This document shows positions 1,441-55,143 of a stretch of DNA of 64,000 nucleotides, one piece after another. The position numbers and the translations under genes are program-made. A model generated the notes under the pieces. The model was not told the origin of the DNA, ran no database searches, and was given only the letters and a program-made list of their open reading frames with translations. The first letter of the stretch is position 1; every line of letters begins with the position of its first letter. Source of the stretch: Clostridia bacterium (GTDB taxonomy: Bacteria > Bacillota > Clostridia > TANB77 > CAG-508); assembly GCA_017528085.1 (NCBI GenBank), contig JAFXPH010000006.1, forward strand, positions 4,376 through 68,375, given 5' to 3'.

Positions 1441-1468
1441 ATTAAATGTACAAATGAAAGGAAATAAT

Positions 1469-2773: not shown

Positions 2774-2788
2774 TATTAAGGGGTACAT

Positions 2789-6098: not shown

Positions 6099-9000
6099 AT
6101 GAGTATTTTCTATGAAGAGGGTAATGAAGAAGAAGATGATGATTTAGACCCAAATAAGAAACAAAACGATGGTCAAGAAGATGAATCAAGTGAGTTTGAA
6201 GATGAGATTAGGGATAAATTAAAAGAAGAATTAAAGGAAAGAGATCAAGCAAAGAATCAGGAGCAAGCTAATAAAGACACTACTCAATCAAATCAAAATG
6301 GACAAGCTGAAGGTTCAAACAATACTCAAGGACAAGGAAATGGAACAGATTCTGCTCAAACTGGTTCTCAAAATGGACCACAAAATGGACCTCAAAGTGG
6401 ACCAGAAACGACTGGACAAGGACCAAGTACTTCAGGTACTACACCAAATGCTGCATCAGGTACAGCAAATGCAACTACTAATGCTACTAATGCAGGTGTT
6501 AATGCAGGAAGTAATGCAGCAGCTAGTACAACAGCAAGTACTGGAGCAGCTGGAACTGCAGGTGGAACTGCAGCAGCAGGTGCAGGTGGAGCAACAGCAG
6601 CAGGAGGAGCCGCAGCAGGAGGTTCAGCAGCAGCAGCTGGTGGAACTGCCGCAGCAGGTGCAGCTAGTGCCGGTGGAGCCGCAGCAGCAGGAGGTGCAGC
6701 AGCTGGTCTTGGAGTTGTACTATTCTGGGTATTAGTAGTTGCAATTATTTTATTTATTTTGATAGGTATAATTGCATTCTTATTAACAATGCCTGGTGTA
6801 GCATTGGCTAAATTAAAACAATTATTTGGAGTTTTGAAACAAGCCGTTGTAGCTTTCTTCGGTGGAGATACAACACAAATGATAGCTAACCAAGACATGT
6901 ATGATATTATGGATTACATAGAATCTATGGGTTATGACTTAAAAGGTGATGGATACTTAACTGAATTCTATGGAAGAGATTATTTAGCAAGTAGTGAATT
7001 TATAGATAGAATTAAACAAGATAACGAAGAAAGAGTAGAGAAAACTGGTGATACAAGTAAAAACTTACCAGAAGATACAACTGAAGGTTTTAGTTATGAA
7101 AACGGTGCAATAAGATATGGAGATAAGATAGCTGTTGCAGATAGTGATTTCTTAACTACATATATGATGAGTGATAACTATTGTTATACTGTAAAAAACT
7201 TTAACTTAGCTACTCAACAATCTGATGACAACTGGATTCAATCAATTTGGCATGGTATTGTAGCCCTTGCAGAAAAAGTTAATAGATGGGCCGCAAATCT
7301 AGTTGGGGCAAGTACAAAATCTGCTTCTAGATGGGGCAAGGGTATGATTTACCTAAAAGAAAGAAGTGCTTCTAGACAGAATGAATGGGATTGGGAAAAA
7401 CTTCCAGAATGGGCAAATGGATATACTTTATTCAAAGGTTCAAAAAGTGCTGAATTAGATGCAGGTGCACAAACTTTAACAATTAAAACAACGGAATGGT
7501 TTACATCAACTAAGATTGAATATTCACTTGAAGGTTGGACAGGCCGTTATGGTATGCCAATAGAATTCTTGCTTGCTATACATCAAGCAACAAGAATGCC
7601 TGACTTACCAATGAGTATGGTTGATTATTTCCCAACAACAATAAATATTGTATTAAATTCCGGAACAGTAGATGTTGATGCTATGGCTGTTGGTACTAAA
7701 GATACTCTAAGTAAAAGAGAAATTAAAGGTGACGGTTTATGGGATTGGCTTACTGGTGGAGGAGTAAATGAAATACAAATGTGTATAAAATATGGCTTCT
7801 GTGCTCCAGATTGTGAAGGAGTAGATGATAAAATCACAGGAGAACATGTTAATTGTTGTAATCAAACAATTCCTGAAGGTACAGACATAATGGAATATAC
7901 AGATCTTTCTATTTGCGATGCTTGTAAAACATATATGGATGGAATTACATCAGGAATTCAAGAGACAAATAGAGAAAATGCTGATACATATATACCATTT
8001 ATCCATAGCGTAAAAAATCATTGGTATAGAGATGTATTATTTGTAGCAAAGAGAGATAGCGAAGTAATAAATATTGATGATGATTATGAATTATTAATGG
8101 ATGAAAGATGGACTTTATACGATACAGATGATAATGGAAATACAATTTGGTATAAAGTTGACGAAAATGGAGAAACAACAAATGAAAAATGGAATGGAAC
8201 TAAAAAGGAAGCTCTAGAGGCTGGTGTAGCAGTTGCTAGAAAGGCTAAATTATCAAAACTAGAAGATAAATTTAAACCAGAAGGTTCAGATGACGAGAAA
8301 AATAAAGAGTTCCAAGGTGATTGGTGGACAGCATATTCATTTACTGATCAACAATCATCAGCTAAAGAAAAAGCATTCCCTGAGGAACCTCCAGAGAGTG
8401 GAAAAAGCCAAGTTTATTATGTTATGACTTTCACATCTGGTTATCCTAAACAATTAGAAGACGGTCAAAGAACAGAAACAAATAATATAATTAAAGATTT
8501 ATTCTTGAATAAATATTATTTGGCTTATAATGGTCAAGGGGATACAGCAGAAGAAATTTATAATTTAAGAAAAGAATTTTTAAGCAATAAGAGTTATAAT
8601 ACAGATCCAGAGTATGCAACAATGCCAGATGGTTCATATTATTATGGACCTATTCCAGATAATATGATTGAAAAAATGCTTACTACTACAGAGGCAGGCG
8701 GAAAGATTCTAAATAAAGAAGATGAGACATATGTAATGGCAAATCCTAACTATAATGCTCAACAGGAAGCAGTTTCAGGAGATGATCCTACAGCAGAAAA
8801 TGGAAATGTTTCTCATGAGAAATTAAACTTAGTAAATTACATTGCGCTACCTTCAGTAGACTCAAAAGCATTAGAAGCATTTACAATGTTAGAACATATG
8901 CATTCAGTTGATGCAGACTTTATTTATAAAGATTTTAAAGAATTAATAGTAGAACTTGGATATTTTGACAAAGAAGCATTAGCAGATCATATACCAGAGT

Positions 9001-35228: not shown

Positions 35229-35909
35229 TTGAATACTAATTATTTAGAGAACAATCATTTACAATTAGTGGGTAAGATTGTAAGTGATAAAAGCTACAGT
35301 CACGAGATTTATGGAGAAAAATTCTATAACTTTGATTTAGAAGTTATTAGATTAAGCAACACAGTAGACATTATACCTATTACAATTTCTGAAAGACTAC
35401 TTACTGAAGTAGATATAGAAATTGGAAAAAACGTTATTATTGAAGGTCAATTTAGATCATACAATAACTATGAGAACGAAAGAAACAGATTAGTTTTAAC
35501 AGTATTTGCAAAAGAGATCAAAGTTGTTTCAGAAGACGACGTTATAGAAGTTACTAACAATGTTGTATTAGTTGGTTATGTATGTAAAAAACCAATTTAC
35601 AGACAAACACCATTTGGAAGAGAAATTGCAGATATATTATTAGCTGTTAACAGAGCTTATAATAAATCAGATTACATTCCATGTATTTCATGGGGAAGAA
35701 ATGCAAGATTCTGCCAAAACATGGAAGTAGGAACTGAAGTTAAAATTGTTGGTAGAGTTCAATCAAGAAATTATGAAAAGAAGCATGAAGATGGTTCTGT
35801 TGAAACAAGAGTTGCTTACGAAGTATCAGTAGCAAGTATGGAAGTAGTTGATGAAGAAAATATGGATTCAACAACTGAAAGCGAAACAGAAAACGTTGAA
35901 AATGCATAA
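35229..35909 (+). CDS. SSB-like protein with two tandem OB folds and acidic C-terminal tail
   Basis: TTG start after AGGGGG RBS; two similar ~100-aa halves each resembling SSB OB fold; ends in acidic tail ...ESETENVENA. Confidence 0.5.
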   Translation: MNTNYLENNHLQLVGKIVSDKSYSHEIYGEKFYNFDLEVIRLSNTVDIIPITISERLLTEVDIEIGKNVIIEGQFRSYNNYENERNRLVLTVFAKEIKVVSEDDVIEVTNNVVLVGYVCKKPIYRQTPFGREIADILLAVNRAYNKSDYIPCISWGRNARFCQNMEVGTEVKIVGRVQSRNYEKKHEDGSVETRVAYEVSVASMEVVDEENMDSTTESETENVENA

Positions 35910-42501: not shown

Positions 42502-43305
42502 ATGGAATATCAAAAGTTTATTCCTGAAGGATGGGTTGAAACAAAAGAAGAATTTAATATTGATGGACTAAAGACTGCATTAGAAAACAAAGATGTAATC
42601 CAAGGATATGTTACATCATGCGATAACAATTATAATTTGCATGTAGATCTTGGTAATAATATTAAAGGTGTTATTCCTCGAAATGAAGTAGATGCAATTA
42701 ATAGTGATGAATATGGCTTTTGTAAGCCTAACTTATGCGTTAATAAAGTTAATTCTTTTGTTCAATTTAAAGTAAAAGAAATATATGATAATAACAATGT
42801 TATTTTATCACGTAAAGAGGTTGGAACAGATGCACTTAATTGGGTAAAAACATCACTAGAACCCCATACTGTAATCAATGGTATAGTAAAGAATATTAGA
42901 AAATATGGAGTGTTTGTTGAGATAGGTGGAGGTATGGTAGGCTTGCTACATATCGAAGATATATCTGTTTCAAGAATGAAAACTCCAGAAGAAAGATTCC
43001 AAGTTGGACAAAAAATTCAGGTTATGATAAAATCAATTGACAAAGAAACTGGAAGAATAATTCTTTCTTACAAAGAGTTACTAGGTGACTGGGATGAGAA
43101 CATCAAAAGCTTTAAAGAAAAGATGATTGTTCCGGGAATAATAAAAGAAGCAGATAAATATAAAAATGGTATATTTATTGAACTTAAACCTAATTTGGTT
43201 GGACTTGCTGAATACAAAGAAGGCTTCTCATATGGAGAAAAAGTAAATGTATTCATCAAGAAAATCGTTAAAGATAAAAAGAAAATTAAATTAGTTATTG
43301 TATAG
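42502..43305 (+). CDS. RNA-binding protein with two S1 domains
   Basis: two ~70-aa S1-like OB segments (GYVTS..., GIVKNIRKYGVFVEIGGGMVGLLHISD-like). Confidence 0.65.
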   Translation: MEYQKFIPEGWVETKEEFNIDGLKTALENKDVIQGYVTSCDNNYNLHVDLGNNIKGVIPRNEVDAINSDEYGFCKPNLCVNKVNSFVQFKVKEIYDNNNVILSRKEVGTDALNWVKTSLEPHTVINGIVKNIRKYGVFVEIGGGMVGLLHIEDISVSRMKTPEERFQVGQKIQVMIKSIDKETGRIILSYKELLGDWDENIKSFKEKMIVPGIIKEADKYKNGIFIELKPNLVGLAEYKEGFSYGEKVNVFIKKIVKDKKKIKLVIV

Positions 43306-44254
43306 GAGGATTTTAGAAGTGGTTGAAGATGAAGATATTAAAACTACGGTATCACCATTCGCTATTAGAGAAGGTGAAATTAAGACATTTGATGGTAAAG
43401 ACGGCTACGTTTCTATCAATCAAATAATTCACAAAATTAATTTGGGACACATCAATGAGGTTCATTTTGCAATATTAGATATTGTTAATGAATTTGAGTT
43501 TGTTACATCAAGACAAATATTCCAATTATTACAACTTAGAGGAGTTGAAATTAAATCTCAAGATAAATTGAATATTAAACTTGAGCAATTAGTTAAAACA
43601 AAGATACTTACAAGATATTACTTTACATCTGAAGAGGGTAAAGGAATCTATAGAATATATTGTATGGAAAAGATGGGTAAATATTTACTAAATTCTAAAG
43701 AAGTTGAATGTAAATGGCAACCAACAGACAATATTAAACCAGTTCCATTAATTAAGAAAAGATTGGCTGGAAACCAAGTATTACTTGCTTACATGAGAAA
43801 AGCAAAAGCTTATTCACAAGTTATAGTAAAACCACAAATAACAGCTAAGATGGCAGGAAAATCATTCAAGTGTCATGGTAAAGTTACTTTAGAGAAAGCT
43901 GGAAAATCAATCGATTTAATATTTGAATGTGTTAGAAGAGAAGATGATTGGCAAACAAAATTTGTTGATAGAATGAGATTATATGCTGATTTCTATAATA
44001 ACTTTGTTAAATTTGATTCAGGATTTAATACAATGCCTCAACTTATTTTAGTATGTGAAGATAAAAACCATATGGCAGAATGCTATGTTGAAATTGTTAA
44101 AGCTAAAGTAGAATTTAAGAAATTAAAACTATACTTTACAACAGATTTAGATCAAAACTCTACATCATTAAAGAAATCATTATATGAATTCGTTAAAGAT
44201 GAAGCAACAGGAAAGGTTAAGACAAACAACATAGAGCTTAATATTTTAGGATAA
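43298..44254 (+). CDS. replication-relaxation (Replic_Relax)-family-like wHTH protein
   Basis: N-terminal pattern HFAILDIVNEFEFVTSRQIFQLL matches the conserved wHTH of replication-relaxation proteins as I recall it; start overlaps previous gene. Confidence 0.4.
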   Translation: MYRRILEVVEDEDIKTTVSPFAIREGEIKTFDGKDGYVSINQIIHKINLGHINEVHFAILDIVNEFEFVTSRQIFQLLQLRGVEIKSQDKLNIKLEQLVKTKILTRYYFTSEEGKGIYRIYCMEKMGKYLLNSKEVECKWQPTDNIKPVPLIKKRLAGNQVLLAYMRKAKAYSQVIVKPQITAKMAGKSFKCHGKVTLEKAGKSIDLIFECVRREDDWQTKFVDRMRLYADFYNNFVKFDSGFNTMPQLILVCEDKNHMAECYVEIVKAKVEFKKLKLYFTTDLDQNSTSLKKSLYEFVKDEATGKVKTNNIELNILG

Positions 44255-44301: not shown

Positions 44302-44670
44302 ATGAAAAGGAAAACTTTTTTGGAAATAATGATAATTATTTGTGTAATACTTGCATTTTATACTGTGAGTGAAAAGGCACAAGTTGTGAATTTAATGAAT
44401 AGAGGATACTATCCACTAATTGATGTTATGAGATACTATGGATATAATTCTACTGGCCTTTATGAATTCAAAAAAGGTGATGACATAGTTAAATTTGAAC
44501 AAAGTACAAAAACTCTAATAGTTAATAATGATAAGTATGTATTATCAGAAGAAGAATTTCTTTTAGGCAAAAACATGATATATTTATCAAATAGTGTCTA
44601 TATGAGAGCATTTGGAATCTCTGTAGATAATGATGGAACAACTATGGACATTGTTCAAGTAGATACTTAA
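44302..44670 (+). CDS. small secreted/anchored protein (122 aa), unknown
   Basis: GGAGGA RBS; N-terminal hydrophobic signal/anchor. Confidence 0.45.
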   Translation: MKRKTFLEIMIIICVILAFYTVSEKAQVVNLMNRGYYPLIDVMRYYGYNSTGLYEFKKGDDIVKFEQSTKTLIVNNDKYVLSEEEFLLGKNMIYLSNSVYMRAFGISVDNDGTTMDIVQVDT

Positions 44671-44717: not shown

Positions 44718-47096
44718 TTATTGTTTTTTGTTATGTTTGATGCTGCTATCATTTTTGTTTTTTCTCATATCGATGATTGCATCTTGATCATCAGCATCAT
44801 ATACCATATCATGCGTTCTAGTTTGAATTGGATTAATAGAATGCATTTCATCTTCTGGTAAGTTATCGAAGTCTATATTTGAATAATTAAACTTAGATGA
44901 TAATTTTTTAGCTTCGTTTTCTTCTTTCTTTTCAATTCCTCCAGCAAACTTAGCAAAGTTAAATGTTCTAATTTTTTGTTTTTGTTTATATTTGCTTTCA
45001 AGGAAATCAAGTTTTGCTTGACCAACAAGCATCTTACCATTAACATCTCTTGTCTTGTATATACAAGCTTTAAATTTAAGTGAGTTAATTTTACCCATCT
45101 TAAAGTTTTCTTTCCAAGCCCAAGATATTGATTTATATGTTGTATCGTATTCACCTTTATCTGTTTTATAGTCGTTAGTGAATTTCCACTCTCTCTTATC
45201 ACCAAACTCTTTTTGCCACCATTCGTTATCTTCTGGAGTGTTATTACCAAATACGATTTTTGTAGAACAGTTAGCTAGAATTGTTTGTCTGAAGTTATAA
45301 TCATTGTTTACACCAAATTGTGATAAGTTTTGTGCAGATATAATTGTACCAACTCTATACTTTCTATATAGTGTGAATATATCTTCTGTTGCTCTACATA
45401 CATATGGTGGGAATTCATCAATGTATAAGAAGTGAGGGATTCTTGTCTTTTCTGTACCTGGTCTAGTTAATACTGAGTATTGCATTAATAGTAAGAAGAA
45501 TAGACCAAATGCTTTATGAATTGATGCTCCTAAGTCTCCACGTCTTGTACATAATAGTATGATTTCACCATTTGCTAAAGCTTTATCATAATTTAAGTTT
45601 TCATGTCTATTACATAGAATATTCTTTACTCCAGGATATCTTAATAGATTTTCAAGTTGAGCAATTGTAGGTTGTAAACATTTTTCTGTTTCTGCTCTTC
45701 CAGAACCATCTTTAAAGAAGTTTTTCTTGAAGTAATTTATTTGATATTTATATTTCTCAGTCAAGTCTTCATGTTCTTGAAGCTGAGCAACCATTTTTTC
45801 AACATTATCAAAGTTATTAATTAATTCTAGTAAATCTTCTAGAGTAGGTAGGTCACCTGAGTGTTCTCTAGGATATAATTCTTTAAGTACTAATACTAAG
45901 TTTTCAACTGCTTGACTAGAAATGTTTTGCATATATGCTTGATCTACAGTTACGTTTCTAGTTAAGTTTATATCTGTATCATACAATCTCTTTAATACTG
46001 ATGAAATTGCAATAGATGTTTTAACTGGGTCTGTGAATATAAATGGGTTTAGTCCAACAGAATTTGTTGAATCATTTGGATCTATTAATTTATATTTGAA
46101 ACCAAAGTTTGTACATACATCTTTTATATGTTCAATTGACTCTATATCTGGAGCCATATATGTTATACCTAAATCTTTAAATGTTGACTTGTTTCCGTTG
46201 TATGAGTACATTAACTTTTTAAAGAAAGATTGGAAAACTTTTTCTTTGTTGTTCCCTGGTGATAACATGTTAAGTGAAAAATTATCATTAATATATTCAT
46301 TTGAATATGGACTATTAAGAATTGCAACACCAGCTTTTAATGCTGTATAACCCATCTCTTTAGCTGACTCTTTAAAGAAGTGCTTTCTTTCAATATCTCT
46401 AGCAATCATTGGTTCGAATACCATTGATGTTTTACCTGAACCAGATACACCAACAACTAACATTGATTCGAATCTTCTTGATTCAGGAATCTTAATTGTT
46501 GTACCAAATTCTTTATCTCTACATAAGTATATCTCACAAGAGAATGGTCCAACGAATTCGCTCTTTTTATTTATATTAATTCCACCATAATCAAATATTG
46601 AGTCTCTTAAATCCTTTGTATCATCAACGAATGTGTATAACCATTTAAATAGTGGATAGAATGATATGATTGGTACATACCAAGCGAATGATGATAATGC
46701 TGGATGAATTAAGTAATCAAATGAAGTTATAACATACTTGTAATTAGGTACCATAAATAAAAGCGTCCAGCTTAATTTGTTTACCCATTGAATAACCATT
46801 GATGCTAACATTATATATAGAGATATTGTATATATGTAGAAGAATTGTAGTTTGATTTTATCATCAGTTACGAATTTAGATCCACCTGATAGATAGAATG
46901 CAGCTACGGGAACAGCCATTGCTATAGTGTACTTAATAGGTCCCCAATAATCTACGGATATACCTGTAAAGCCTATCAATAATATTTCAACAAATCTGTC
47001 TATTACGACATAGAACGCCATTAATGTAAATAAATATGTAAAGAATGTGTTTCTGTCGGTTTTTAACTTCTTTAAGAACTTATCTAAAATATTCAT
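44718..47096 (-). CDS. membrane-anchored P-loop ATPase resembling type IV secretion coupling protein (VirD4/TraG/TraD-like)
   Basis: 792 aa; ~4 N-terminal TM helices; Walker A VVGVSGSGKTS, Walker-B-like LYIDEF, downstream IISAQNLSQF (T4CP/FtsK-like Q motif). Confidence 0.5.
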   Translation of the reverse strand: MNILDKFLKKLKTDRNTFFTYLFTLMAFYVVIDRFVEILLIGFTGISVDYWGPIKYTIAMAVPVAAFYLSGGSKFVTDDKIKLQFFYIYTISLYIMLASMVIQWVNKLSWTLLFMVPNYKYVITSFDYLIHPALSSFAWYVPIISFYPLFKWLYTFVDDTKDLRDSIFDYGGININKKSEFVGPFSCEIYLCRDKEFGTTIKIPESRRFESMLVVGVSGSGKTSMVFEPMIARDIERKHFFKESAKEMGYTALKAGVAILNSPYSNEYINDNFSLNMLSPGNNKEKVFQSFFKKLMYSYNGNKSTFKDLGITYMAPDIESIEHIKDVCTNFGFKYKLIDPNDSTNSVGLNPFIFTDPVKTSIAISSVLKRLYDTDINLTRNVTVDQAYMQNISSQAVENLVLVLKELYPREHSGDLPTLEDLLELINNFDNVEKMVAQLQEHEDLTEKYKYQINYFKKNFFKDGSGRAETEKCLQPTIAQLENLLRYPGVKNILCNRHENLNYDKALANGEIILLCTRRGDLGASIHKAFGLFFLLLMQYSVLTRPGTEKTRIPHFLYIDEFPPYVCRATEDIFTLYRKYRVGTIISAQNLSQFGVNNDYNFRQTILANCSTKIVFGNNTPEDNEWWQKEFGDKREWKFTNDYKTDKGEYDTTYKSISWAWKENFKMGKINSLKFKACIYKTRDVNGKMLVGQAKLDFLESKYKQKQKIRTFNFAKFAGGIEKKEENEAKKLSSKFNYSNIDFDNLPEDEMHSINPIQTRTHDMVYDADDQDAIIDMRKNKNDSSIKHNKKQ

Positions 47097-48417: not shown

Positions 48418-49047
48418 ATGGGAGTAGTAATTACAAGAGATGATATCATAGCTTATGCTGAGGTAGATTATGTAATTAAACACATGAATGAGAGATATCA
48501 AGATATGGTACCAATTAAATTAAGAGATTTTTTTGAAACATATAAAGAACCAGATTATGATATATATGTTAATCCAAAGGTACCACTTGCAAATCAAGGA
48601 TTAAAGAAATATACATTAGAGATTTTGGCACTATTACATTTAAAATATTGGTGCCAAGATGAAGATAGAAAAAAACAATTATACAATATGATGAAACAAA
48701 ATGAGATGGAAATTGAAGCGAGAATCAGGGAACAATATGGTGTAGAAAATCTTTTCCAAACTGCTGATGCTACAATTGTTAATTCAGAAGAAGACCTAGA
48801 AGATGCAGAACCACAAGATTTTTCAAAACCAAAAGGAGTAACTAGAGTAGATGTAGTGTCTACTGAAGAAGTAGAAGAAAAAGAGACAGAATCTGAAGAA
48901 ACAAAAACAGAGGAAAAAACTAGTGAAACTGCTGAAAGCGCAAGTAGTGAAGATAATAATTTAGCTTCTATTAATAAAACTGGATTTTTTGAAAAAATTA
49001 AAGAATTTTTCTCAAAATTATTTAAGAAAAATGGAAGTGTTGAATAG
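48418..49047 (+). CDS. hypothetical protein with acidic Glu-rich region and C-terminal amphipathic helix (FFEKIKEFFSKLFKK)
   Basis: AAGGAG RBS; C-terminus resembles a membrane-targeting amphipathic helix. Confidence 0.45.
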   Translation: MGVVITRDDIIAYAEVDYVIKHMNERYQDMVPIKLRDFFETYKEPDYDIYVNPKVPLANQGLKKYTLEILALLHLKYWCQDEDRKKQLYNMMKQNEMEIEARIREQYGVENLFQTADATIVNSEEDLEDAEPQDFSKPKGVTRVDVVSTEEVEEKETESEETKTEEKTSETAESASSEDNNLASINKTGFFEKIKEFFSKLFKKNGSVE

Positions 49048-49065
49048 AACAACACTTCTTTTTTA
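49034..49065 (+). terminator. rho-independent terminator
   Basis: GAAGTGTTG-AATAGAA-CAACACTTC + T6; stop codon lies in loop. Confidence 0.7.
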
Positions 49066-49226
49066 CAATTGTTAAATTTTGACAGTAAAAATATAGGAAA
49101 AAAGTTGATAAAAATAGTGGTTTTTTGTTGATATTTTCCTAAATATATAGTATCATAATATATGTAGTATAAGTAGATTTTATGCTACGGATATTAATGA
49201 ACAAATAATTCCTAAGGGGGATAAAT

Positions 49227-49640
49227 ATGCTAAAAAAAGTATTAATCTTAACAATGGTATTTATGTGCGTATTAGGTATGTTTTTCATGTTTTCAAATGC
49301 AGACTCAGAATATGATGCTGTTATTGAACAACATGATGACCCAGAATTAGTTCAAATGAGGGAATCAACAGCTGCAAAATTAGAAGGCTATGTAGCAGCA
49401 TATGGTTCATATCCATATGGTGTAGCTGCAGCAATCTTGAATGTTGTTAGAATTTACAGTATTCCATTTTGCTTTGTTGGTATAGCATTAGGATCTATAT
49501 ACCAATATGTTATTGGTATAAGAAGATTAGATGTTAGAGATAGAGGTTTCCACCTTATCATAACATTTGTAACTATATTGGTAATATGCCAAATTTTACC
49601 ATTACTTTTTGCTGTAATAGTAACAGGTTGGAGGAGTTAA
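49227..49640 (+). CDS. small polytopic membrane protein (137 aa)
   Basis: AAGGGGG RBS; 3-4 TM helices. Confidence 0.5.
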   Translation: MLKKVLILTMVFMCVLGMFFMFSNADSEYDAVIEQHDDPELVQMRESTAAKLEGYVAAYGSYPYGVAAAILNVVRIYSIPFCFVGIALGSIYQYVIGIRRLDVRDRGFHLIITFVTILVICQILPLLFAVIVTGWRS

Positions 49641-49643
49641 CGA

Positions 49644-52600
49644 ATGAAAGTTTTATTTGCAGTTAGTAGCGAGGCTATTTCAGAAGGAATAGTTAGACAA
49701 TATCAAAAAGAATATAAAGAGATATTGTCTTATAAAAATGTTTATTACTTTAATGCAATATTAAAAGAAATACAACAAGATAAATCATATGACAGAATTG
49801 TCATATCAGAGGATTTAGAGTCATTTTCAAATAATAACTACGAACAAATCGATAAGTTCTTATTTGAGAAGTTAGATAATATTAGTGATGAGGCACAAGA
49901 TATTAATGGTCAAGAAACAGCAATCATTTTAATATGTTCTGAAAGAAGAAACAAGGGTAGTGCTTTCTTAAACAAGATTTTTAGTATCGGTATTTATAAT
50001 GCTTTATTAGGTCAAGATAGAATTAAGACAAATGTTTGTAAATTAATTAATAAGCCTAGAATTAAAAAAGAAGCCAAGACATACTATGCTATTGATGCTG
50101 AAGATGCTAATTATGATCAAAGCAATGATGAAGAAGTATCTGAAATTGAAATAACAAATATTAGAAATCACTTTAGAAAATTAGGAAAGAATACTGATAA
50201 GTATGCTGAGAGCTTTAATAATATTGCTGCTCAATATACTGATGATCAATTAAAAATTGTTGTTAACTGTTTACCTGCACAAGTTAAACAAGTTCTTGAA
50301 AAAACATCACCAAGATATCAAGAATTTATGGCAGCAGGAAATGTTAAATCAGTTGCTAATATGTCTGTTGAAGAAGAAGCAAAATCTTCAGGATTAAAGA
50401 TGGACTTCATTTCTAAGAATAAAAATACTATTGATAAACCAATAGTTATTCCATCTTCAGTTCGTAGAAGAACACCTTCTGCTTCAGGAACAGCAAGCTC
50501 TAGTTCAAGTGGTGTATCTACAATTAGAAGAGTAACAAACACAATTAAGCCAGAAGCAAATAAAGCTCCAACTCCAGCTGAAGAAAAAACAGCAGAAAAT
50601 GTTGAGAATGAACTTGATGCGCTAGATGATTTACTAGCACCTCAAGAAGATAAAGCAAATGATATTAATGATAATTTATTAAATATGGATAATACATCAA
50701 ATGAAGTTCCAAATGAATCAGCAGATGATATGTTATCAGCACTAGATGACTTGGGTGGAACTGATGATCTACTAAATCCAGAACCAACAGCAGAAGAACC
50801 TGTTGTAGAAGAAACTGCTAAAGAGGATGATGGAATACTTCCAGGATTCGATGATTTAGGAGGATCAGATGATTTATTAAATCCAGAACCAACAGCAGAA
50901 GCACCTGCTGCAGAGGATGATGGAATTCTTCCAGGATTCGATGATTTAGGTGGAACTGATGACTTATTAAATCCAGAACCAACAGCAGAAGAACCTGCTG
51001 CAGAGGATGATGGAATTCTTCCAGGATTCGATGATTTAGGAGGATCAGATGATTTATTAAATCCAGAACCAACAGCAGAGGAACCTGCTACAGATGATGA
51101 TTTATTACCAGGATTTGATGACTTAGGAGGATCAGATGATTTATTAAATCCAGAACCAACAGCAGAAGAACCTGCTACAGAGGATGATGGAATACTTCCA
51201 GGATTCGATGATTTAGGTGGAACTGATGACCTATTAAATCCAGAGCCAACAGCAGAAAAACCTGCTACAGAGGATGATGGAATACTTCCAGGATTTGATG
51301 ATTTAGGTGGAACTGATGACCTATTAAATCCAGAACCAACAGTAGAAAAACCTGCTGAAGAAGATGATATGCTTCCAGGATTAGATGATTTAGGTGGAAC
51401 TGATGATTTATTAAATCCAGAACCAACAGTAGAAGAATCTACTGAAGAAGATGACATGCTTCCAGGATTAGACGATCTTTCAAATATAGATGATGAAGAA
51501 CCTAAAAAGAGAGGTAGAGGAAGACCAAGAAAAATTATTACTGAGCCTCCAAAACCAAAGGGAAAAAGAGGTAGACCTAGAAAAAATCCTGTTGGAGAAG
51601 ATGGTTCAACATTACCTGGAATGGGATTTGAAGATGATGAATATACAGACGAAGTAGACATCGAAGGATTAGATGAACTTGATGATTACACAGATGAAAG
51701 CTTCGGCGATGTTGAAACAAACAACACTGCAGATGATGGAATGTTACCAGGATTTGATGATTTAGATGTTACTGATGATACTACATCAGATTCATCTGAA
51801 AGTTCAGTTGATGATTTATTATCAGGATTAGATGATTTAGGAGGAGATACTCCTGTAGCTGACAGCACTCCTAGTGATGATATGCTACCAGGTTTAGATG
51901 ATGTAGATGATTTATTAGGTGGCGAAACTCCAGCAAATAATAATCCTGAACCTACTAAGATAGATACTGTAAAACCAACAGTAGATTATTCAATGTCAAG
52001 TTTAAATAGTTTATTAACACCAGATAAGAAGATAGCAACATTTATAGGAACATCTAAAAATGGTACATCTTTCTTAGTTAATAACCTTGGATTATTATTT
52101 GATACAATTGGTAAGAATGTAGCTATCTTAGATATGACTAAAAATAGAAATTCTTATTACATCTTTAATTGTAACGATGAAGAGTTAAGAAAAGTATGTA
52201 ATAATTCATTTAGCAATTTGGAAAGAGGTGTAGCAGAAGGAATTAGAGTTAAACCTAATTTAACTGTTTATACTGGACTACCAGATGATGGAAAAGTGTA
52301 TAAAAATGTTGAAGCTATGCTATCAACATTAGTACAAAATCATGATATAGTATTAATAGATTGTGATTTTGATACAGATCCTTCATTCTTTGCTAAGTGT
52401 CAAGAAATATATCTTGTTCAATCAATGGATACATTAACAATTCAACCATTGACATACTTCTTAAAGATATTACAAGATAGAGAAGTATTAGAACCAGAAA
52501 AAATTAGAATAGTACTTAACAAAGTAGTTAAGTTAAGAGGATTCCAACCAAAAGATTTCGTTGGAGGTATGTCATGTTATAATGCTCCTTCAATGTCAGT

Positions 52601-52895
52601 AATGAGAACATTGTTTAATCCTCAATTAGTAAAAGTGTTTACAATAAACTTTGAAGAAAGTGTTTATATTAGATACTTAGATGCTATTGCAGCATGTAAG
52701 ATGACTTTAGATGGTTACTCAAAGACATTTATGGCTGCATTAAAGCAACTTGCTCAATCTGTTTATTCATTTAACAATGGTGGCGGAATGAGAACAAATA
52801 TTGGTGCACCAACTCAACCACAAATGAGACCAGGAGCACAATTTACAAGTAATATGAATAACACATTAGACAAAATGAAAAGAAATATGAATTAG
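49644..52895 (+). CDS. modular 1083-aa protein: receiver-like N-domain, ~8 near-perfect plus ~4 degenerate acidic [DDGILPGFDDLGG(S/T)DDLLNPEPTAEEPA]-type motifs, two AT-hooks (GRGRPRK, KRGRPRK), C-terminal MinD/ParA-like domain with degenerate Walker A
   Basis: GGAGGAG RBS 7 nt before ATG 49644; repeats visible in DNA; C-terminal IATFIGTSKNGTSFLVNNLG...VAILDMT...IVLIDCDFD aligns to MinD/ParA deviant Walker A region but lacks the GK[ST] lysine. Confidence 0.7.
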   Translation: MKVLFAVSSEAISEGIVRQYQKEYKEILSYKNVYYFNAILKEIQQDKSYDRIVISEDLESFSNNNYEQIDKFLFEKLDNISDEAQDINGQETAIILICSERRNKGSAFLNKIFSIGIYNALLGQDRIKTNVCKLINKPRIKKEAKTYYAIDAEDANYDQSNDEEVSEIEITNIRNHFRKLGKNTDKYAESFNNIAAQYTDDQLKIVVNCLPAQVKQVLEKTSPRYQEFMAAGNVKSVANMSVEEEAKSSGLKMDFISKNKNTIDKPIVIPSSVRRRTPSASGTASSSSSGVSTIRRVTNTIKPEANKAPTPAEEKTAENVENELDALDDLLAPQEDKANDINDNLLNMDNTSNEVPNESADDMLSALDDLGGTDDLLNPEPTAEEPVVEETAKEDDGILPGFDDLGGSDDLLNPEPTAEAPAAEDDGILPGFDDLGGTDDLLNPEPTAEEPAAEDDGILPGFDDLGGSDDLLNPEPTAEEPATDDDLLPGFDDLGGSDDLLNPEPTAEEPATEDDGILPGFDDLGGTDDLLNPEPTAEKPATEDDGILPGFDDLGGTDDLLNPEPTVEKPAEEDDMLPGLDDLGGTDDLLNPEPTVEESTEEDDMLPGLDDLSNIDDEEPKKRGRGRPRKIITEPPKPKGKRGRPRKNPVGEDGSTLPGMGFEDDEYTDEVDIEGLDELDDYTDESFGDVETNNTADDGMLPGFDDLDVTDDTTSDSSESSVDDLLSGLDDLGGDTPVADSTPSDDMLPGLDDVDDLLGGETPANNNPEPTKIDTVKPTVDYSMSSLNSLLTPDKKIATFIGTSKNGTSFLVNNLGLLFDTIGKNVAILDMTKNRNSYYIFNCNDEELRKVCNNSFSNLERGVAEGIRVKPNLTVYTGLPDDGKVYKNVEAMLSTLVQNHDIVLIDCDFDTDPSFFAKCQEIYLVQSMDTLTIQPLTYFLKILQDREVLEPEKIRIVLNKVVKLRGFQPKDFVGGMSCYNAPSMSVMRTLFNPQLVKVFTINFEESVYIRYLDAIAACKMTLDGYSKTFMAALKQLAQSVYSFNNGGGMRTNIGAPTQPQMRPGAQFTSNMNNTLDKMKRNMN
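50730..51480 (+). repeat. in-frame tandem repeat, 90-nt period (about 8 near-identical copies, one 87-nt), followed by degenerate copies to ~51940
   Basis: unit GAGGATGATGGAATWCTTCCAGGATTCGATGATTTAGGWGGAWCWGATGAYTTATTAAATCCAGAACCAACAGCAGAAGMACCTGCTGCA recurring at 50823, 50913, 51003, 51090, 51180, 51270, 51361, 51451. Confidence 0.85.
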
Positions 52896-52910
52896 TAGAG
52901 GTGAATAGTT

Positions 52911-53996
52911 TTGGCGATATTTTTAGCTATTGTTCTTGTCATTATAATAATAATACTAGTTTGTTATAACATCGACTTACAGAAAAAAATTAAAATGTTT
53001 AATAACATCAATGAGAAGATTAACAACTTAAGTATTTTACAGAACTTCATGGAAATTGCAGGTGAAGAGGATTCTGTAGAAGATAAATTGGCAAAGATCA
53101 ATGAAATTGTAATTGAAAAATATGATATTAAGTATTCTACTATAGTTGTTTTTGACGGTGCAGAATTCGTTATCAAAGCATCAAATGTTGATAAGATTCA
53201 TTATGATACACTTGCAAATATCCATCAAGAAGAGATATTCCAAGACAGTATTCAAACAGCAACGCCAAAATATATAACAATAGAAGATGAAAATGAAAAA
53301 CTTCCTTATCAAAAGGTTGAAATGGGTAGAGCTAAATCTGCAATGTTTTTCCCATTGTTTACAGACAACATTTTCACAGGTTACTGGATAATGGAAAGTG
53401 GAAAGATGCATGCATTCGATAATATTGATACAACAATTATTGAAGTTGTTAAGACAAATATCGTAAATGTTCTTTCAACTGTATCTTATCAAAGTACTAT
53501 TGAAAATACTGTAAGAGTAGATCAATTTACAGGACTATATTCACCAGAACACTTATATACTGCTGGTAGAAAAATATATGATAAATATGATACTTCAGCC
53601 GTATGTATGTTTAAAATAGCTAATATCGAAGAAATAAATGAAAAAGTTAGTAGACAAGTTGGTAACGATATAATTACTGAAATTAGTAATATAGTTAAGA
53701 CAAAGATGTCTAACCAATACATTTTCGTAAGATATATGGGACCAAGATTTGTTATAGTATTCTCTGGAGTTGATGAGGGTTCAGTTGAAGAATTCTTAAA
53801 AGACTTAAAGAGAGAGATGGAAGAAGTAGAAGTAGTTGAAGAAAGAGATGGCCAGACAGCACTCTCTGCTTCACCACTTATCAATTTCGTAATTAGTACA
53901 TACTACAAAGGAACTGGTATGGAACAATTATGTAAGAGATTGGAAGAATACTTAGATTCAGCAGATAAATCTGAAAACCAAATTAATTATATTTAG
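52911..53996 (+). CDS. membrane-anchored protein with degenerate GGDEF-like C-terminal domain
   Basis: TTG start after GAGGTGA RBS; N-terminal TM; VDQFTGLYSPEHL (D-x-TGL-x-N-like) and RYMGPRFVIVF in place of RYGGEEF; no RxxD I-site seen. Confidence 0.5.
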   Translation: MAIFLAIVLVIIIIILVCYNIDLQKKIKMFNNINEKINNLSILQNFMEIAGEEDSVEDKLAKINEIVIEKYDIKYSTIVVFDGAEFVIKASNVDKIHYDTLANIHQEEIFQDSIQTATPKYITIEDENEKLPYQKVEMGRAKSAMFFPLFTDNIFTGYWIMESGKMHAFDNIDTTIIEVVKTNIVNVLSTVSYQSTIENTVRVDQFTGLYSPEHLYTAGRKIYDKYDTSAVCMFKIANIEEINEKVSRQVGNDIITEISNIVKTKMSNQYIFVRYMGPRFVIVFSGVDEGSVEEFLKDLKREMEEVEVVEERDGQTALSASPLINFVISTYYKGTGMEQLCKRLEEYLDSADKSENQINYI

Positions 53997-54008: not shown

Positions 54009-54266
54009 ATGCAAAGTAATGATAAAACTATGAGTTTTAGAGTTGAAAAGGATAAGAGCATAAGAGCAAGAGAAATTTTAAAAGAAGTTTATCAAGCTTT
54101 AGTTGAAAAAGGATATAATCCAATCAATCAAATCGTTGGATATATTTTATCAGGAGATCCTACTTATATAACAAGCCATAACGATGCTAGAAATTTAATC
54201 AGACTAATAGAAAGAGATGAATTACTAGAGAAGATGGTTAAATATTATATAGGATTGGAAGACTAA
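54009..54266 (+). CDS. ireB: IreB-family regulatory phosphoprotein (UPF0297/DUF965)
   Basis: 85 aa, ...[35 protein letters not shown]... family signature; conserved position upstream of ruvX. Confidence 0.75.
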
Positions 54267-54269
54267 TTA

Positions 54270-54686
54270 ATGCGTATACTTGGAATTGATTATGGTGATA
54301 GCCGAGTAGGGATTGCTATAACTGATGCACTTGGTTATACAGCTCAAGGACTTGAAACTATTACTCATAATGGTAATGATAAAATAGTATTGAAAAGATT
54401 AGATGAGATTCTTTCTGAATACGAAATTGATACGTTTGTAGTTGGTATGCCTTACAATATGGATGGCACTAAAACTATAAGAGCAGAAGTAACTGAGAAG
54501 TTTATACATAAGCTTAAATGTAAGTATAATAAGATAAAAATTGAGACTATGGATGAAAGACTAACAACAGTCGCTGCTCATAAAACAATGAACCTTCTAG
54601 ATATCAATAAACACAAGAAAAGAGGGATTGTTGATACTATTTCTGCAGTGTACATTTTAGAGATGTACATGAACAAAAAAAGTTAA
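54270..54686 (+). CDS. ruvX: Holliday junction resolvase-like protein RuvX/YqgF
   Basis: MRILGIDYGDSRVGIAI N-terminus. Confidence 0.85.
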   Translation: MRILGIDYGDSRVGIAITDALGYTAQGLETITHNGNDKIVLKRLDEILSEYEIDTFVVGMPYNMDGTKTIRAEVTEKFIHKLKCKYNKIKIETMDERLTTVAAHKTMNLLDINKHKKRGIVDTISAVYILEMYMNKKS

Positions 54687-54778
54687 ATAAAAGTATTGCA
54701 ATAAATTTTTAGTTAGTATATTATATTTATATATAGAAATATGCAAATGATAATTTGATTAGTGAAAGGAGCTAAGTA

Positions 54779-55102
54779 ATGGACGAGAATAATGAAAATG
54801 AAAACATGGAAGAATTTGATGAAGATTTAAGCAACATCATAATCTTAAATGACGAGAATGGTGAGGAAGTTAAATTCGAATTCTTAGATCTTATTGAATA
54901 TGATTCAAACGAATATGTCGTTTTATTACCAGTAGATGCTGACGAAGATGATGGAGAAGTTGTTATTCTTCAAGTTGAAGAAACAGAAAATCCAGATGAA
55001 GAGTCATATATTAGTGTAAATGATGATGAAGTCCTTATGACTGTATTTAATATTTTTAAAGAAAAATTTAAAGATGAATTTAATTTCGAAGATGCAGAAT
55101 AA
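54779..55102 (+). CDS. DUF1292-family acidic protein (UPF0473)
   Basis: acidic 107-aa protein with ...IIILNDENGEEVKFEFLDLIEYDSNEYVVLLP... pattern; canonical neighbour of ireB-ruvX. Confidence 0.7.
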   Translation: MDENNENENMEEFDEDLSNIIILNDENGEEVKFEFLDLIEYDSNEYVVLLPVDADEDDGEVVILQVEETENPDEESYISVNDDEVLMTVFNIFKEKFKDEFNFEDAE

Positions 55103-55114
55103 TATAATATAATT

Positions 55115-55143
55115 AAAGAAGTACTTAGTACTTCTTTTTTTTA
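55115..55143 (+). terminator. rho-independent terminator
   Basis: AGAAGTAC-TTA-GTACTTCT + T10. Confidence 0.8.

Follow-up and report, generated by a model that had tools for sequence, protein, structure and literature searches.

A conserved gene of uncultured gut Clostridia combines a dead receiver, an acidic motif-bearing linker, AT-hooks and a lysine-less MinD-like domain

TadZ and CpaE proteins carry an atypical receiver (REC) and a C-terminal amphipathic helix, and they dimerize by binding ATP through a Walker-like K/RGGxGx[ST] motif even though TadZ lacks the Walker lysine (PMC13170226). In E. coli-type cellulose secretion, BcsQ (GVRGGVGTTT, C39) has Thr at the Walker-Lys position and Cys at that of the catalytic Asp, and binds ATP tightly as a locked sandwich dimer; this dimer engages the degenerate GGDEF domain of BcsE, and the small transmembrane (TM) protein BcsF brings it to the membrane (PMC8892547). 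AT-hooks next to a highly acidic region are reported for HMGA and Myxococcus xanthus CarD (PMC2919716, PMC4482583).

TadZ/CpaE and BcsQ–BcsE(REC*–GGDEF*)–BcsF are the closest analogues of the 1083-aa protein described here, which belongs to neither. With TadZ/CpaE (E. rectale TadZ, PDB 3fkq) it shares an N-terminal atypical receiver, a C-terminal atypical MinD/ParA domain, a Walker-like motif without the canonical lysine and, as in CpaE, a C-terminal amphipathic helix; like them, it would be a localization scaffold, not a motor. The TadZ/CpaE-like layout suggested by an earlier note on this DNA is confirmed. However, a disordered linker of 180 to 650 aa separates the domains in its family, the P-loop lysine sits elsewhere (GxxKxGT[ST]), the gene lies outside any tad locus, and no sequence-level relationship to TadZ/CpaE was found. 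In both fold searches the TadZ ATPase domain ranked below MinD, ParA, FleN and FlhG, and by these model-based comparisons the C-terminal domain has a structure nearer to those of MinD, ParA and FlhG than to that of TadZ. In the Bcs module (PDB 6ybb, among the Foldseek matches), the MinD/ParA protein likewise has Thr in place of the Walker lysine and something other than Asp at the catalytic site, and it works alongside degenerate receiver and GGDEF domains and a small TM protein that acts as recruiter. In contrast, the system of order TANB77 fuses REC* to the MinD-like domain and places GGDEF* on a separate membrane protein; it lacks RxxD I-sites, BcsR and cellulose synthase genes, and its AT-hooks and motif array have no counterpart in the Bcs module.

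Compared with MinD, which the Pfam and NCBIfam MinD models did not connect with the 1083-aa protein, there are no equivalents of K11, K16 and D40 (by a low-probability hhalign register), no MinC or MinE, and an additional receiver domain and linker. Unlike the MinD-like flagellar number regulators FlhG/FleN, the protein has lost the catalytic residues, and flagellar genes are not nearby. It resembles HMGA and the CarD C-terminal domain in having canonical RGRP AT-hooks beside a highly acidic, disordered stretch; it differs in carrying only two hooks, within a 540-aa linker between folded domains, in their absence from part of the family and, relative to CarD, in lacking the CarD_TRCF RNAP-binding domain.

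The gene family and its operon

Both ORFs singled out by the earlier note were recovered in the window (the whole 64-kb stretch analyzed), with ATG and TTG starts, respectively. The features of the locus are as follows.

49033..49059, + strand: terminator-like hairpin ending the hup/143-aa/209-aa unit (10-bp stem then T-run, directly after the 209-aa stop)
49128..49156, + strand: sigma-70-like promoter candidate TTGATA-17-TATCAT (10/12 consensus, consensus match only)
49227..49640, + strand: 137-aa small membrane protein, 3-TM (hydropathy, synteny)
49644..52895, + strand: 1083-aa protein, whole ORF (ORF call)
52911..53996, + strand: 361-aa bitopic membrane protein (Pfam GGDEF, hydropathy)
54009..54266, + strand: IreB (Pfam, 4e-39)
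54270..54686, + strand: RuvX (Pfam, 2.7e-40)
54779..55102, + strand: DUF1292 (Pfam, 4.9e-16)
55115..55137, + strand: terminator-like hairpin ending the predicted transcription unit (10-bp stem then T-run, 13 nt after the DUF1292 stop)

The 1083-aa ORF is a genuine, strongly conserved and so far unannotated gene of an uncultured gut order. An exhaustive profile search of 1.84 billion representatives retrieved no more than 424 relatives. The gene occurs in at least 576 species-level genomes, every one an uncultured gut Clostridia MAG, and no cultured organism was among the genomes found to carry the family. Its close clade belongs to the order TANB77 (family CAG-508). Orthologs measure 716 to 1185 aa (70 complete loci), and the two folded domains retain 50 to 67% and 60 to 75% identity across hundreds of species; this strong purifying selection on both domains indicates that the degenerate site is functional and not decaying. 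The receiver-like and MinD-like domains matched no Pfam, NCBIfam or PDB sequence model, in agreement with the lack of annotation claimed previously.

The conserved unit runs from a small 3-TM protein through the 1083-aa gene to IreB–RuvX–DUF1292. Its universally linked partner is the 3-TM protein, mentioned merely in passing by the earlier note: a homolog lies directly upstream of the 1083-aa gene in 83/83 loci and in two distant loci (L084/L085), with 19 invariant columns in an alignment that includes the latter. The 137-aa protein, without match in Pfam and NCBIfam, has an N-terminal signal/anchor helix, an acidic exposed segment and two TM helices with the basic loop IRRLDVRDRG between them (hydrophobic stretches in the hydropathy profile: aa 1-25, 65-91 and 106-137), and its stop codon lies 3 nt before the 1083-aa gene. 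IreB, RuvX and DUF1292 follow in the same order in 71 to 75 of the 83 loci and also in the distant ones; here the spacers in front of them measure 12, 3 and 92 nt and contain SD-like sequences. With core-operon gaps of 3 to 15 nt and terminator-like hairpins on both sides, these housekeeping genes are predicted to be co-transcribed with the 1083-aa gene, and they point to no particular process for its product. As noted earlier, hup (Bac_DNA_binding, 1e-36), the 143- and 209-aa acidic proteins and the 137-aa membrane protein lie upstream in the same orientation. However, hup and the two acidic proteins fall outside the unit, beyond the hairpin and the promoter candidate, which lies in the 179 nt upstream of the gene for the small membrane protein, and they occur within 10 kb in only 11 to 16 of the 83 loci.

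Architecture of the 1083-aa protein

The protein consists of a dead receiver, an acidic linker with a repeated motif, two AT-hooks and a lysine-less MinD-like domain. This four-part architecture, claimed before, holds; both folds came out as predicted, and neither the non-receiver nor the non-P-loop fold that would have spoken against it appeared.

49644..50024, + strand: pseudo-receiver (CheY-like) domain, aa 1-127 (fold search)
50025..50348, + strand: conserved helical subdomain, aa 128-235 (AF2 helices H128-231, pLDDT ~82-87)
50349..50573, + strand: basic/Ser-rich segment, aa 236-310, net +6 (charge, conserved motif)
50574..51500, + strand: acidic disordered array, aa 311-619, net -99, eight LPG(F/L)DD motifs (Tandem Repeats Finder, motif positions)
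51504..51536, + strand: AT-hook 1, KKRGRGRPRKI, aa 621-631 (Pfam AT_hook)
51561..51590, + strand: AT-hook 2, GKRGRPRKNP, aa 640-649 (sequence pattern)
51600..51971, + strand: second acidic segment, aa 653-776, net -40, three more LPG motifs (motif positions, charge)
51972..52778, + strand: MinD/ParA-fold domain, aa 777-1045 (fold searches)
52779..52892, + strand: low-confidence linker and conserved amphipathic basic C-terminal helix FTSNMNNTLDKMKRNMN (model, conservation)

In the pseudo-receiver, an invariant Glu56 directly follows strand beta3 (RIVIS-E-D), the acidic pair after beta1 is missing (SSE instead), and so is the Lys after beta5. The helical subdomain includes an invariant basic patch, PRxKKEAKxYY, and the basic segment a conserved linear motif, GLKMDFI...KPIVIPSSV.

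The acidic linker spans ~540 aa and contains a tandem array of 90-nt units (50807..51476; x7.5, 88% matches, score 948). Eleven LPG[FLM] motifs were counted at the protein level: seven full near-identical 30-aa units plus a truncated one (LPG at aa 399-606), with three degenerate copies further on (aa 657, 701 and 748). Together with a degenerate, LPG-less copy at ~aa 361, these match the 'about eight plus four' repeats counted earlier. The motif [DE]3-x-Φ-L-P-x-Φ-[DE]2 occurs in 66/69 orthologs and is not due to chance: it was observed 397 times, against 20.2 +/- 4.2 expected from composition-preserving shuffles of the orthologs (~20-fold enrichment), and remained ~14-fold enriched in orthologs without repeat arrays. 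The 16-mers at the motif are unique in 367 of the 397 cases, and Gly-less orthologs keep it as LPE[LF][DE]. Distant family members lack it altogether. Both canonical AT-hooks reported for this protein are present, the Pfam AT_hook score being 17.5 bits (cut-off, 17.4), and an RGRP pair spaced by 17 to 36 aa recurs in 49 to 50 of 69 orthologs; hooks are absent from 11/69 near orthologs and every distant member. AT-hooks and acidic repeats do not define the family; they are additions that particular lineages have made to a linker of variable make-up.

The P-loop segment of the MinD-like domain, KIATFIGTSKNGTSF (aa 796-810), contains G802-T-S-K805-N-G807-T808-S809, and further sites are ILD830-M-T832 and LID906-C-D908. 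The P-loop reads G-x-x-K-x-G-T-[ST] family-wide, with an invariant Lys three residues before the Walker-Lys position, which places Thr at the latter. An approximate hhalign register of low probability sets T803 on K11, T808 on K16 and T832 on D40; the active-site mapping also leans on a weak BceF alignment. The earlier observation that the Walker lysine is missing is supported, but the ATP-binding deficiency deduced from it does not follow, judging by analogy with the lysine-less BcsQ and TadZ, which both bind ATP. The C-terminal helix (model residues 296-304, pLDDT 54-61; family consensus FSxxMNxTLxxMKKKY) has a muH of 0.51-0.52 (~96th percentile) and a mean hydrophobicity of -0.38. Tails of distant members are MinD-MTS-like (KKRRGIFG, KKKGLFK, GGFGLFRKK); the near-clade tail is polar and conserved in sequence, so that a peptide for protein binding explains it no less well than an anchor in the membrane does.

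The dead-GGDEF neighbor

The 361-aa protein has a single TM helix (aa 1-27), followed by a cytoplasmic middle domain of high conservation and by a GGDEF domain (Pfam, 4.3e-9, 36.8 bits, cut-off 23.8; TIGR00254, 39.4, cut-off 37.4). RYMGPRF replaces RxGG(D/E)EF, and RYMGP[KR]F is found in 75/76 orthologs. Alignment with DgcR revealed the changes NR to SE, DxD to KxI/N and GGEEF to MGPKF, which replace the guanine-binding Asn/Arg and both metal ligands; no RxxD I-site occurs at the canonical position. These substitutions fit the catalytically dead, I-site-less GGDEF domain that had been predicted. The protein resembles PelD-type degenerate GGDEF receptors in its membrane anchor, cytoplasmic middle domain and incompetent GGDEF, but has one TM helix instead of several, and its middle domain gave no GAF match; the absent I-site makes c-di-GMP binding by the known mode unlikely. 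Linkage to the 1083-aa gene, whose absence would have counted against the pairing, was found in 76 of the 77 near-clade (TANB77) loci that include the C-terminal domain, with the GGDEF-like gene between the 1083-aa gene and IreB. The pairing thus stands for the TANB77 clade but not family-wide, the gene being absent from both distant loci.

Alternative readings and proposed role

Breaks of many metagenome assemblies in the repeat region and the hypervariable length and charge of the linker could suggest that the long ORF results from misassembly or encodes a fast-evolving low-complexity product without function. The likelihood of this is practically nil: 70 independent assemblies hold both domains in an uninterrupted ORF, the flanking domains are 50 to 75% identical over at least 576 species, and the motif core is kept in non-identical contexts; together with synteny, these data refute it. 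It is also highly improbable that the protein is the TadZ/CpaE of a Tad-type pilus encoded away from its cluster. The architecture and the missing Walker lysine are common to both, TANB77 genomes possess a conserved Tad-like pilus cluster (PMC11680825), and T2SSE/T2SSF genes lie ~8 to 10 kb upstream in one locus (L001). However, that cluster already encodes a TadZ-like protein of 231 aa and a CpaE-like one of 280 aa beside CpaB, TadA and TadBC (PMC11680825), no tad genes occur in the window or next to the gene across the 83 loci, and both the fold ranking and the P-loop lysine position set the protein apart from TadZ.

The same three folds in the BcsERQ complex (6ybb; PMC8892547) and the PelD-like order of TM, middle and degenerate GGDEF domains in the partner would accommodate a BcsQ/BcsE-like or PelD-like second-messenger effector complex, in which the dead GGDEF protein senses a nucleotide and the MinD-like protein controls a secretion or polysaccharide machine. 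This is rather improbable given the replaced ligands, the lack of a canonical-position I-site, the absence of synthase, bcs, pel and secretion genes from the operon and window, and the distant members devoid of the GGDEF-like gene. A MinD-derived division-site regulator, whose LPxF[DE][DE] peptides engage FtsA, SepF or other FtsZ-tail receptors to sequester them or concentrate the divisome, is unlikely as well. The peptides do resemble the FtsZ C-terminal core D-I-P-x-F-L, yet the residues after the motif Phe are acidic, whereas FtsZ tails are hydrophobic or basic there; distant members lack the motif entirely, minC, minE and divIVA are missing from the window and flanks, and a MinD incapable of ATP hydrolysis would form no dynamic gradient.

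Our tentative preference is for a non-enzymatic or very slowly cycling, membrane-associated scaffold of the ParA/MinD superfamily, with a TadZ/CpaE-like build and a long disordered linker. Our direct results are the folds, the substituted residues, the conservation of motif and gene order, and the predicted operon. That the protein binds nucleotide and DNA, dimerizes, attaches to the membrane and contacts its partners is inferred, as is any cellular process it may serve, including the nucleoid or cell-pole positioning suggested earlier. The MinD-like domain would homodimerize, probably around bound nucleotide like BcsQ and TadZ, and stay locked rather than cycle, as it lacks the signature lysine and catalytic aspartate. 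Its attachment to the cytoplasmic membrane face may be due to the C-terminal helix and/or two operon partners. One is the universal 3-TM protein; the other, present in TANB77, is the membrane-anchored protein with the dead GGDEF domain, whose contact with the MinD-like domain would resemble that of BcsE-GGDEF* with BcsQ. The pseudo-receiver may serve oligomerization or partner binding. In TANB77, the linker would add multivalency, its up to 18 acidic L-P-x-(F/L/M)-[DE][DE] motifs recruiting a client protein or binding the protein's own folded domains, while the two AT-hooks may tether AT-rich chromosomal DNA. Since distant members lack the GGDEF-like partner and the AT-hooks, and 11/69 near orthologs also lack the hooks, the core function must be able to do without either. 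Overall, the protein would act as a membrane-anchored hub that joins the nucleoid and/or client proteins to a defined site of the envelope.

Operon structure and distribution

An uninterrupted ORF of 1083 aa (49644..52895, +) is followed by a 361-aa ORF (52911..53996, +). The earlier note had described the larger product as a four-part protein with a neighboring partner, and all of these features were found where they had been placed (ORFs, repeats, and AT-hooks were checked). The elements of the locus are as follows.

49033..49059, terminator-like hairpin after the gene of a 209-aa protein
49128..49156, promoter-like site between this upstream hairpin and the operon
49227..49640 (+), 137-aa protein with three transmembrane (TM) helices
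49644..52895 (+), 1083-aa large protein
52911..53996 (+), 361-aa GGDEF-like partner
54009..55102 (+), IreB, RuvX, and DUF1292 genes
55115..55137, terminator-like hairpin after DUF1292

The intergenic gaps are 3, 15, 12, and 3 nt, with an SD-like sequence before each gene. A homolog of the 137-aa protein is encoded directly upstream of the large gene in all 83 fetched loci. The linkage to the GGDEF-like gene anticipated in the earlier note held in 76 of the 77 near-clade loci (order TANB77, family CAG-508) that include the region for the C-terminal domain (C-domain), followed by IreB (75), RuvX (74), and DUF1292 (71); the shortfalls in these counts reflect contig ends. The order small membrane protein, large gene, and IreB-RuvX-DUF1292 is kept in two loci of distant family members (L084 and L085), which lack the GGDEF-like gene and whose small membrane protein is homologous to the 137-aa protein. 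The conserved order, the short gaps, and the bracketing hairpins thus define the unit as the 137-aa TM protein, the large protein, the GGDEF-like partner where present, and IreB-RuvX-DUF1292. At both distant loci, a PBP5-type carboxypeptidase gene adjoins the small membrane protein gene upstream, and Spo0A is encoded a few kilobases downstream.

The earlier note had extended the system to hup and the genes of a 143-aa and the 209-aa protein. These lie within 10 kb of the operon in only 11 to 16 of the 83 loci and are separated from it by the terminator-like hairpin, which leaves them as mere neighbors. The 209-aa acidic protein (48418..49047, +), whose gene is near the operon in only 14 of 83 loci and is likewise set apart by the hairpin, carries at its C terminus a helix (TGFFEKIKEFFSKLFKK) that is strongly amphipathic, with a hydrophobic moment (μH) of 0.58, above that of the large protein's own tail; its match to FtsA_C is very weak (E of 0.85). 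A mobile-element origin of the operon, considered in view of VirD4-like and Replic_Relax-like genes upstream, was dismissed: the window is housekeeping throughout, and the placement before IreB-RuvX-DUF1292 is kept in distant relatives. The VirD4/TraG-like coupling protein homolog (792 aa, 44718..47096, −; TraG-D_C, 5e-9) is accompanied by a weak Replic_Relax-like gene (43298..44254) and a Cu_amine_oxidN1-like gene (44302..44670). About 10 related metagenome-assembled genome (MAG) loci carry the VirD4-like gene at a matching relative position, which makes a conserved chromosomal gene a likelier reading than a recent mobile element. Elsewhere, the window contains tandem pyrimidine-nucleoside phosphorylase paralogs (439 and 434 aa; 1454..4093, +), a 226-aa SSB homolog (35229..35909, +) with an extension of ~110 aa N-terminal to the OB fold (SSB domain at aa 110 to 205), and a 1918-aa ORF (6099..11855, +) with no Pfam match at E ≤ 1e-3. 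The latter has an acidic, G/A/T/S-rich low-complexity N terminus, a hydrophobic segment at approximately aa 205 to 235, Cys-rich stretches, and, at approximately aa 1170 to 1260, a Cys...His region that, by eye only, may be NlpC/P60- or CHAP-like.

Cluster-level homologs at 50 to 75% identity numbered 446 for the C-domain and 538 for the N-terminal domain (N-domain); none carries a Pfam annotation of either domain, and the few named ones are hypothetical proteins. At least 576 genomes harbor the gene (one genome per GTDB species was scanned), all of them MAGs of uncultured Clostridia recovered from the guts of animals and humans. Carriers include Ca. Scatovivens faecipullorum and Ca. Merdicola faecigallinarum, genera of the family CAG-508, order TANB77 (PMC13106387), an order with no cultured member (PMC11680825). 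Name look-ups for the distant members and a homolog search from one of them returned no cultured organism and no annotation, and literature searches on AT-hooks, ParA/MinD, and Clostridia retrieved no account of the large protein. Many database homologs are short (280 to 470 aa) because scaffolds break in the repeats and gene callers yield separate N- and C-terminal "proteins"; the majority of the family's database entries are truncated in this way. N-runs inside the repeat region split the ORF in three fetched loci (L001, 9090-9190 and 9880-9990; L002, ~9800; L003, ~9700), and 70 gap-free loci contain the complete ORF, of 716 to 1185 aa.

Domains and motifs of the large protein

The sole Pfam match of the large protein was a borderline AT_hook (PF02178; 17.5 bits versus a cutoff of 17.4), and NCBIfam returned none. 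The C-domain retrieved nothing from Pfam CbiA/ParA/AAA_31/MipZ or NCBIfam even at E ≤ 1, and searches of PDB sequences with the N- and C-domains, as single sequences and as family profiles, gave nothing usable beyond a weak P-loop alignment to the BY-kinase BceF. The fold assignments of the earlier note (receiver at the N terminus, MinD/ParA at the C terminus) were nonetheless borne out by predicted models, in which neither domain takes a nonreceiver or non-P-loop fold. The N-domain is modeled as a (βα)5 CheY-like fold, with an invariant Glu56 after β3 (RIVIS-E-D) that distant members also retain, S-S/N-E after β1 where the acidic pair is expected, and L-G, without Lys, after β5. These positions were taken from the model topology and not from structural superposition; on that basis, the N-domain would be a pseudo-receiver missing the phospho-acceptor Asp, the acidic pair, and the Lys. 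None of 31 members matched Response_reg (PF00072) at E ≤ 0.01, and hhalign of the N-domain profile to a genuine Spo0A receiver gave a probability of 0.2%. Another linear motif, GLK(I/M)D(F/I)I.N...(K/R)P(I/V)VIPS.V (50391..50468; approximately aa 250 to 275), comes after an adjacent helical subdomain and is conserved in orthologs whose linkers differ strongly.

Net charge sums to approximately −127 over the linker (aa 311 to 776), broken by a +12 AT-hook segment; across orthologs, linker length varies from 179 to 656 aa and net charge from 0 to −166. Tandem Repeats Finder delimited 7.5 copies of a 90-nt unit at 50807..51476 (88% matches; score, 948), and 8 of the 11 LPG[FLM] motifs of the protein fall inside the near-identical 30-aa units. 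The pattern [DE]3-x-Φ-L-P-G-Φ-[DE]3 (as in the 20-mer EDDGILPGFDDLGGTDDLLN) occurs 397 times in 62 of 69 TANB77-clade orthologs versus 20.2 ± 4.2 times in shuffled sequences, and 367 of its 16-mers are unique. The 26 short-linker orthologs without arrays still contain 49 occurrences (3.5 ± 2.0 by shuffling). Copies that miss the Gly take the form LPE[LF][DE]E; 66 of 69 orthologs contain the generalized motif. Enrichment in array-free orthologs, the unique 16-mers, and the LPE variants together indicate that LPxF[DE][DE] is a conserved short linear motif that was amplified independently and is not the by-product of a single duplication. Other proteins of the window lack it, save one chance-like LPTLED in the VirD4-like ORF. 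The two AT-hooks, KKRGRGRPRKI (aa 621 to 631) and GKRGRPRKNP (aa 640 to 649), have the canonical R-G-R-P core with basic flanks and are predicted tethers to AT-rich DNA. RGRP hooks are paired, 17 to 36 aa apart, in 49 to 50 of 69 orthologs and single in 8; the 11 orthologs that miss them have Lys-rich patches instead. Linkers of distant members consist of E/R/K-rich helical repeats, Q/A/E/K repeats, or N-rich tracts, with neither AT-hooks nor LPG motifs. In place of the acidic/AT-hook linker, L084 (8001..10379; protein P0355) has the E/R/K-rich helical repeats and L085 (8001..10943; P0383) the Q/A/E/K repeats with a Pro-rich tract.

The C-domain is modeled as an α/β P-loop fold whose seven-stranded sheet has MinD/ParA topology. 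Residues F800, G802, K805, G807, S809, and F810 are invariant in the family alignment, and in all recognizable cases among 146 representatives, the P-loop sequence is G-[TA]-x-K-x-G-T-[ST]. It departs from the deviant Walker A consensus xKGGxxGK[ST], with non-Lys residues at both the signature-Lys and the canonical-Lys positions. BceF, the only PDB sequence to align, and weakly, placed G-T-S on G-K-S. A short hhalign match to the Escherichia coli MinD sequence, used as a lead for register alone given its probability of 0.2%, set T803 on K11, K805 on G13, and T808 on K16, and ILD830-M-T832 on VID38-F-D40, with D830 invariant and an invariant Thr (T832) at the D40 position. If this register is right, the signature Lys, the Walker Lys, and the catalytic Asp would all be replaced, and another Lys (K805) would be invariant. 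Strong purifying selection keeps the lysine-less P-loop fixed in the family. The earlier note had gone further and called the domain ATP-binding deficient, which the substitutions do not imply: TadZ, devoid of the canonical Lys (bioRxiv 10.64898/2026.07.08.737194), still binds ATP to dimerize (PMC13170226). Weak CbiA matches at E ≤ 0.01 were obtained for 12 of 36 relatives (best E, 5e-4). An exhaustive profile search of 1.84 billion representatives yielded only 424 hits at E ≤ 1e-3 and did not reach canonical MinD/ParA; the family is thus isolated from them at the sequence level. Two homologs (P0009 and P0067) join the C-domain to an N-terminal RDD or HTH_3 domain; as assemblies break in this gene, these fusions are probably chimeric or miscalled models and not real architectures.

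Near-clade proteins end in the consensus FSxxMNxTLxxMKKKY, helical by model with low confidence. The tail of the large protein is amphipathic, with a μH of 0.51 (approximately the 96th percentile of the protein), yet it is polar (<H>, −0.38). Tails of distant members (KKRRGIFG, KKKGLFK, or GGFGLFRKK) resemble the MinD membrane-targeting sequence. Membrane association is plausible, but the window protein may need partners for it. A tie between tail type and the GGDEF-like partner proved only loose, locus L053 having both a MinD-like tail and the partner.

The GGDEF-like partner and comparison with known systems

The 361-aa protein comprises one N-terminal TM helix, a very conserved middle domain, and a C-terminal GGDEF domain (PF00990, 36.8 bits, cutoff of 23.8; TIGR00254, 39.4, cutoff of 37.4), and its family profile matched the cyclase DgcR (6zxb) at 2.7e-11. 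The middle domain has no detectable relatives; its assignment as GAF was dropped, as neither Pfam nor PDB profile searches favored it. The GG(D/E)EF signature is replaced by RYMGP[KR]F in 75 of 76 orthologs. Relative to active DgcR, the substrate-binding NR is changed to SE, the metal-binding DID to KII/N, and GGEEF to MGPKF. The RxxD I-site, five residues upstream of GGDEF, is absent: the window protein has S-N-Q-Y, and orthologs vary except for the Tyr. By these residues, the partner is a conserved GGDEF-fold protein that is catalytically incompetent, and binding of c-di-GMP in the known mode is unlikely.

Judged from the combined analysis, the large protein is best explained as a putative scaffold from the ParA/MinD superfamily that would be associated with the membrane and locked on nucleotide; in TANB77, it would have gained motifs for multivalent client binding, hooks for DNA, and a dead-GGDEF partner for docking. 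Three other explanations are less well supported than this scaffold. One is that of a remote TadZ. TadZ/CpaE proteins share with the large protein an atypical receiver, an atypical MinD-like domain, and, by prediction, an amphipathic helix, as well as the missing canonical Lys. However, the TadZ Walker-like consensus is K/RGGxGx[ST] (bioRxiv 10.64898/2026.07.08.737194), whereas the large protein has T-S-K-N-G-T-S, without K/R-G-G. No tad/cpa locus (tadA/cpaF, tadB, or tadC) surrounds the large gene in 83 loci, and T2SSE/T2SSF are not found in the window. By locus context and by Walker-like motif, the large protein does not qualify as a TadZ/CpaE member; the Tad pilus cluster of TANB77 encodes TadZ-like and CpaE-like proteins of its own (PMC11680825).

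Action of the operon as a second-messenger effector complex would fit its GGDEF-fold member and its likeness to BcsQ-BcsE-BcsF, a set with which it shares a MinD-like protein with Thr at the Lys position, degenerate receiver and GGDEF domains, and a small TM protein. It differs from that set in lacking I-sites, and bcsA/B and BcsR are absent from the window and flanks. The third alternative is a divisome regulator; neither minC/minE nor divIVA/minJ was found in the 64 kb of the window or flanking the loci examined. As for the linker of the proposed scaffold, its AT-hooks next to an acidic region recall HMGA and M. xanthus CarD.

Implications for the ParA/MinD superfamily and TANB77

A fuller picture, which we regard as an unlikely possibility, is that of an undescribed, self-contained positioning and tethering system in which one polypeptide merges roles that are usually divided between several proteins. 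At the membrane, a dedicated three-TM protein and the dead-GGDEF anchor would hold a MinD-like dimer locked on nucleotide. The AT-hooks would take over the DNA contact that ParA-type proteins make by themselves, and the acidic LPxF[DE][DE] motifs, of which there are up to 18, would engage, in trans, the pseudo-receiver or MinD-like domains of this very protein. The resulting multivalent meshwork or condensate would link envelope and AT-rich nucleoid in the reduced-genome, uncultured TANB77.

TANB77, a prevalent order of uncultured gut Clostridia, has been associated with responsiveness to cancer immunotherapy (PMC11680825). The operon ranks among its most conserved uncharacterized genes, present in hundreds of species without a Pfam, NCBIfam, or literature description, and the large gene is subject to a systematic annotation error, being routinely miscalled as two shorter proteins because the repeats break most metagenome assemblies. 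LPxF[DE][DE] is a candidate new bacterial linear motif; it is rare in bacteria, as is an acidic array joined to AT-hooks, and the motif and AT-hook peptides are testable in vitro without culturing the organism. The family would add a new branch to the ParA/MinD superfamily and, with TadZ and BcsQ, represent a putative third independent case of a MinD fold turned into a static, nucleotide-locked scaffold, of interest both to the ParA/MinD field and to those who study uncultured gut Clostridia.
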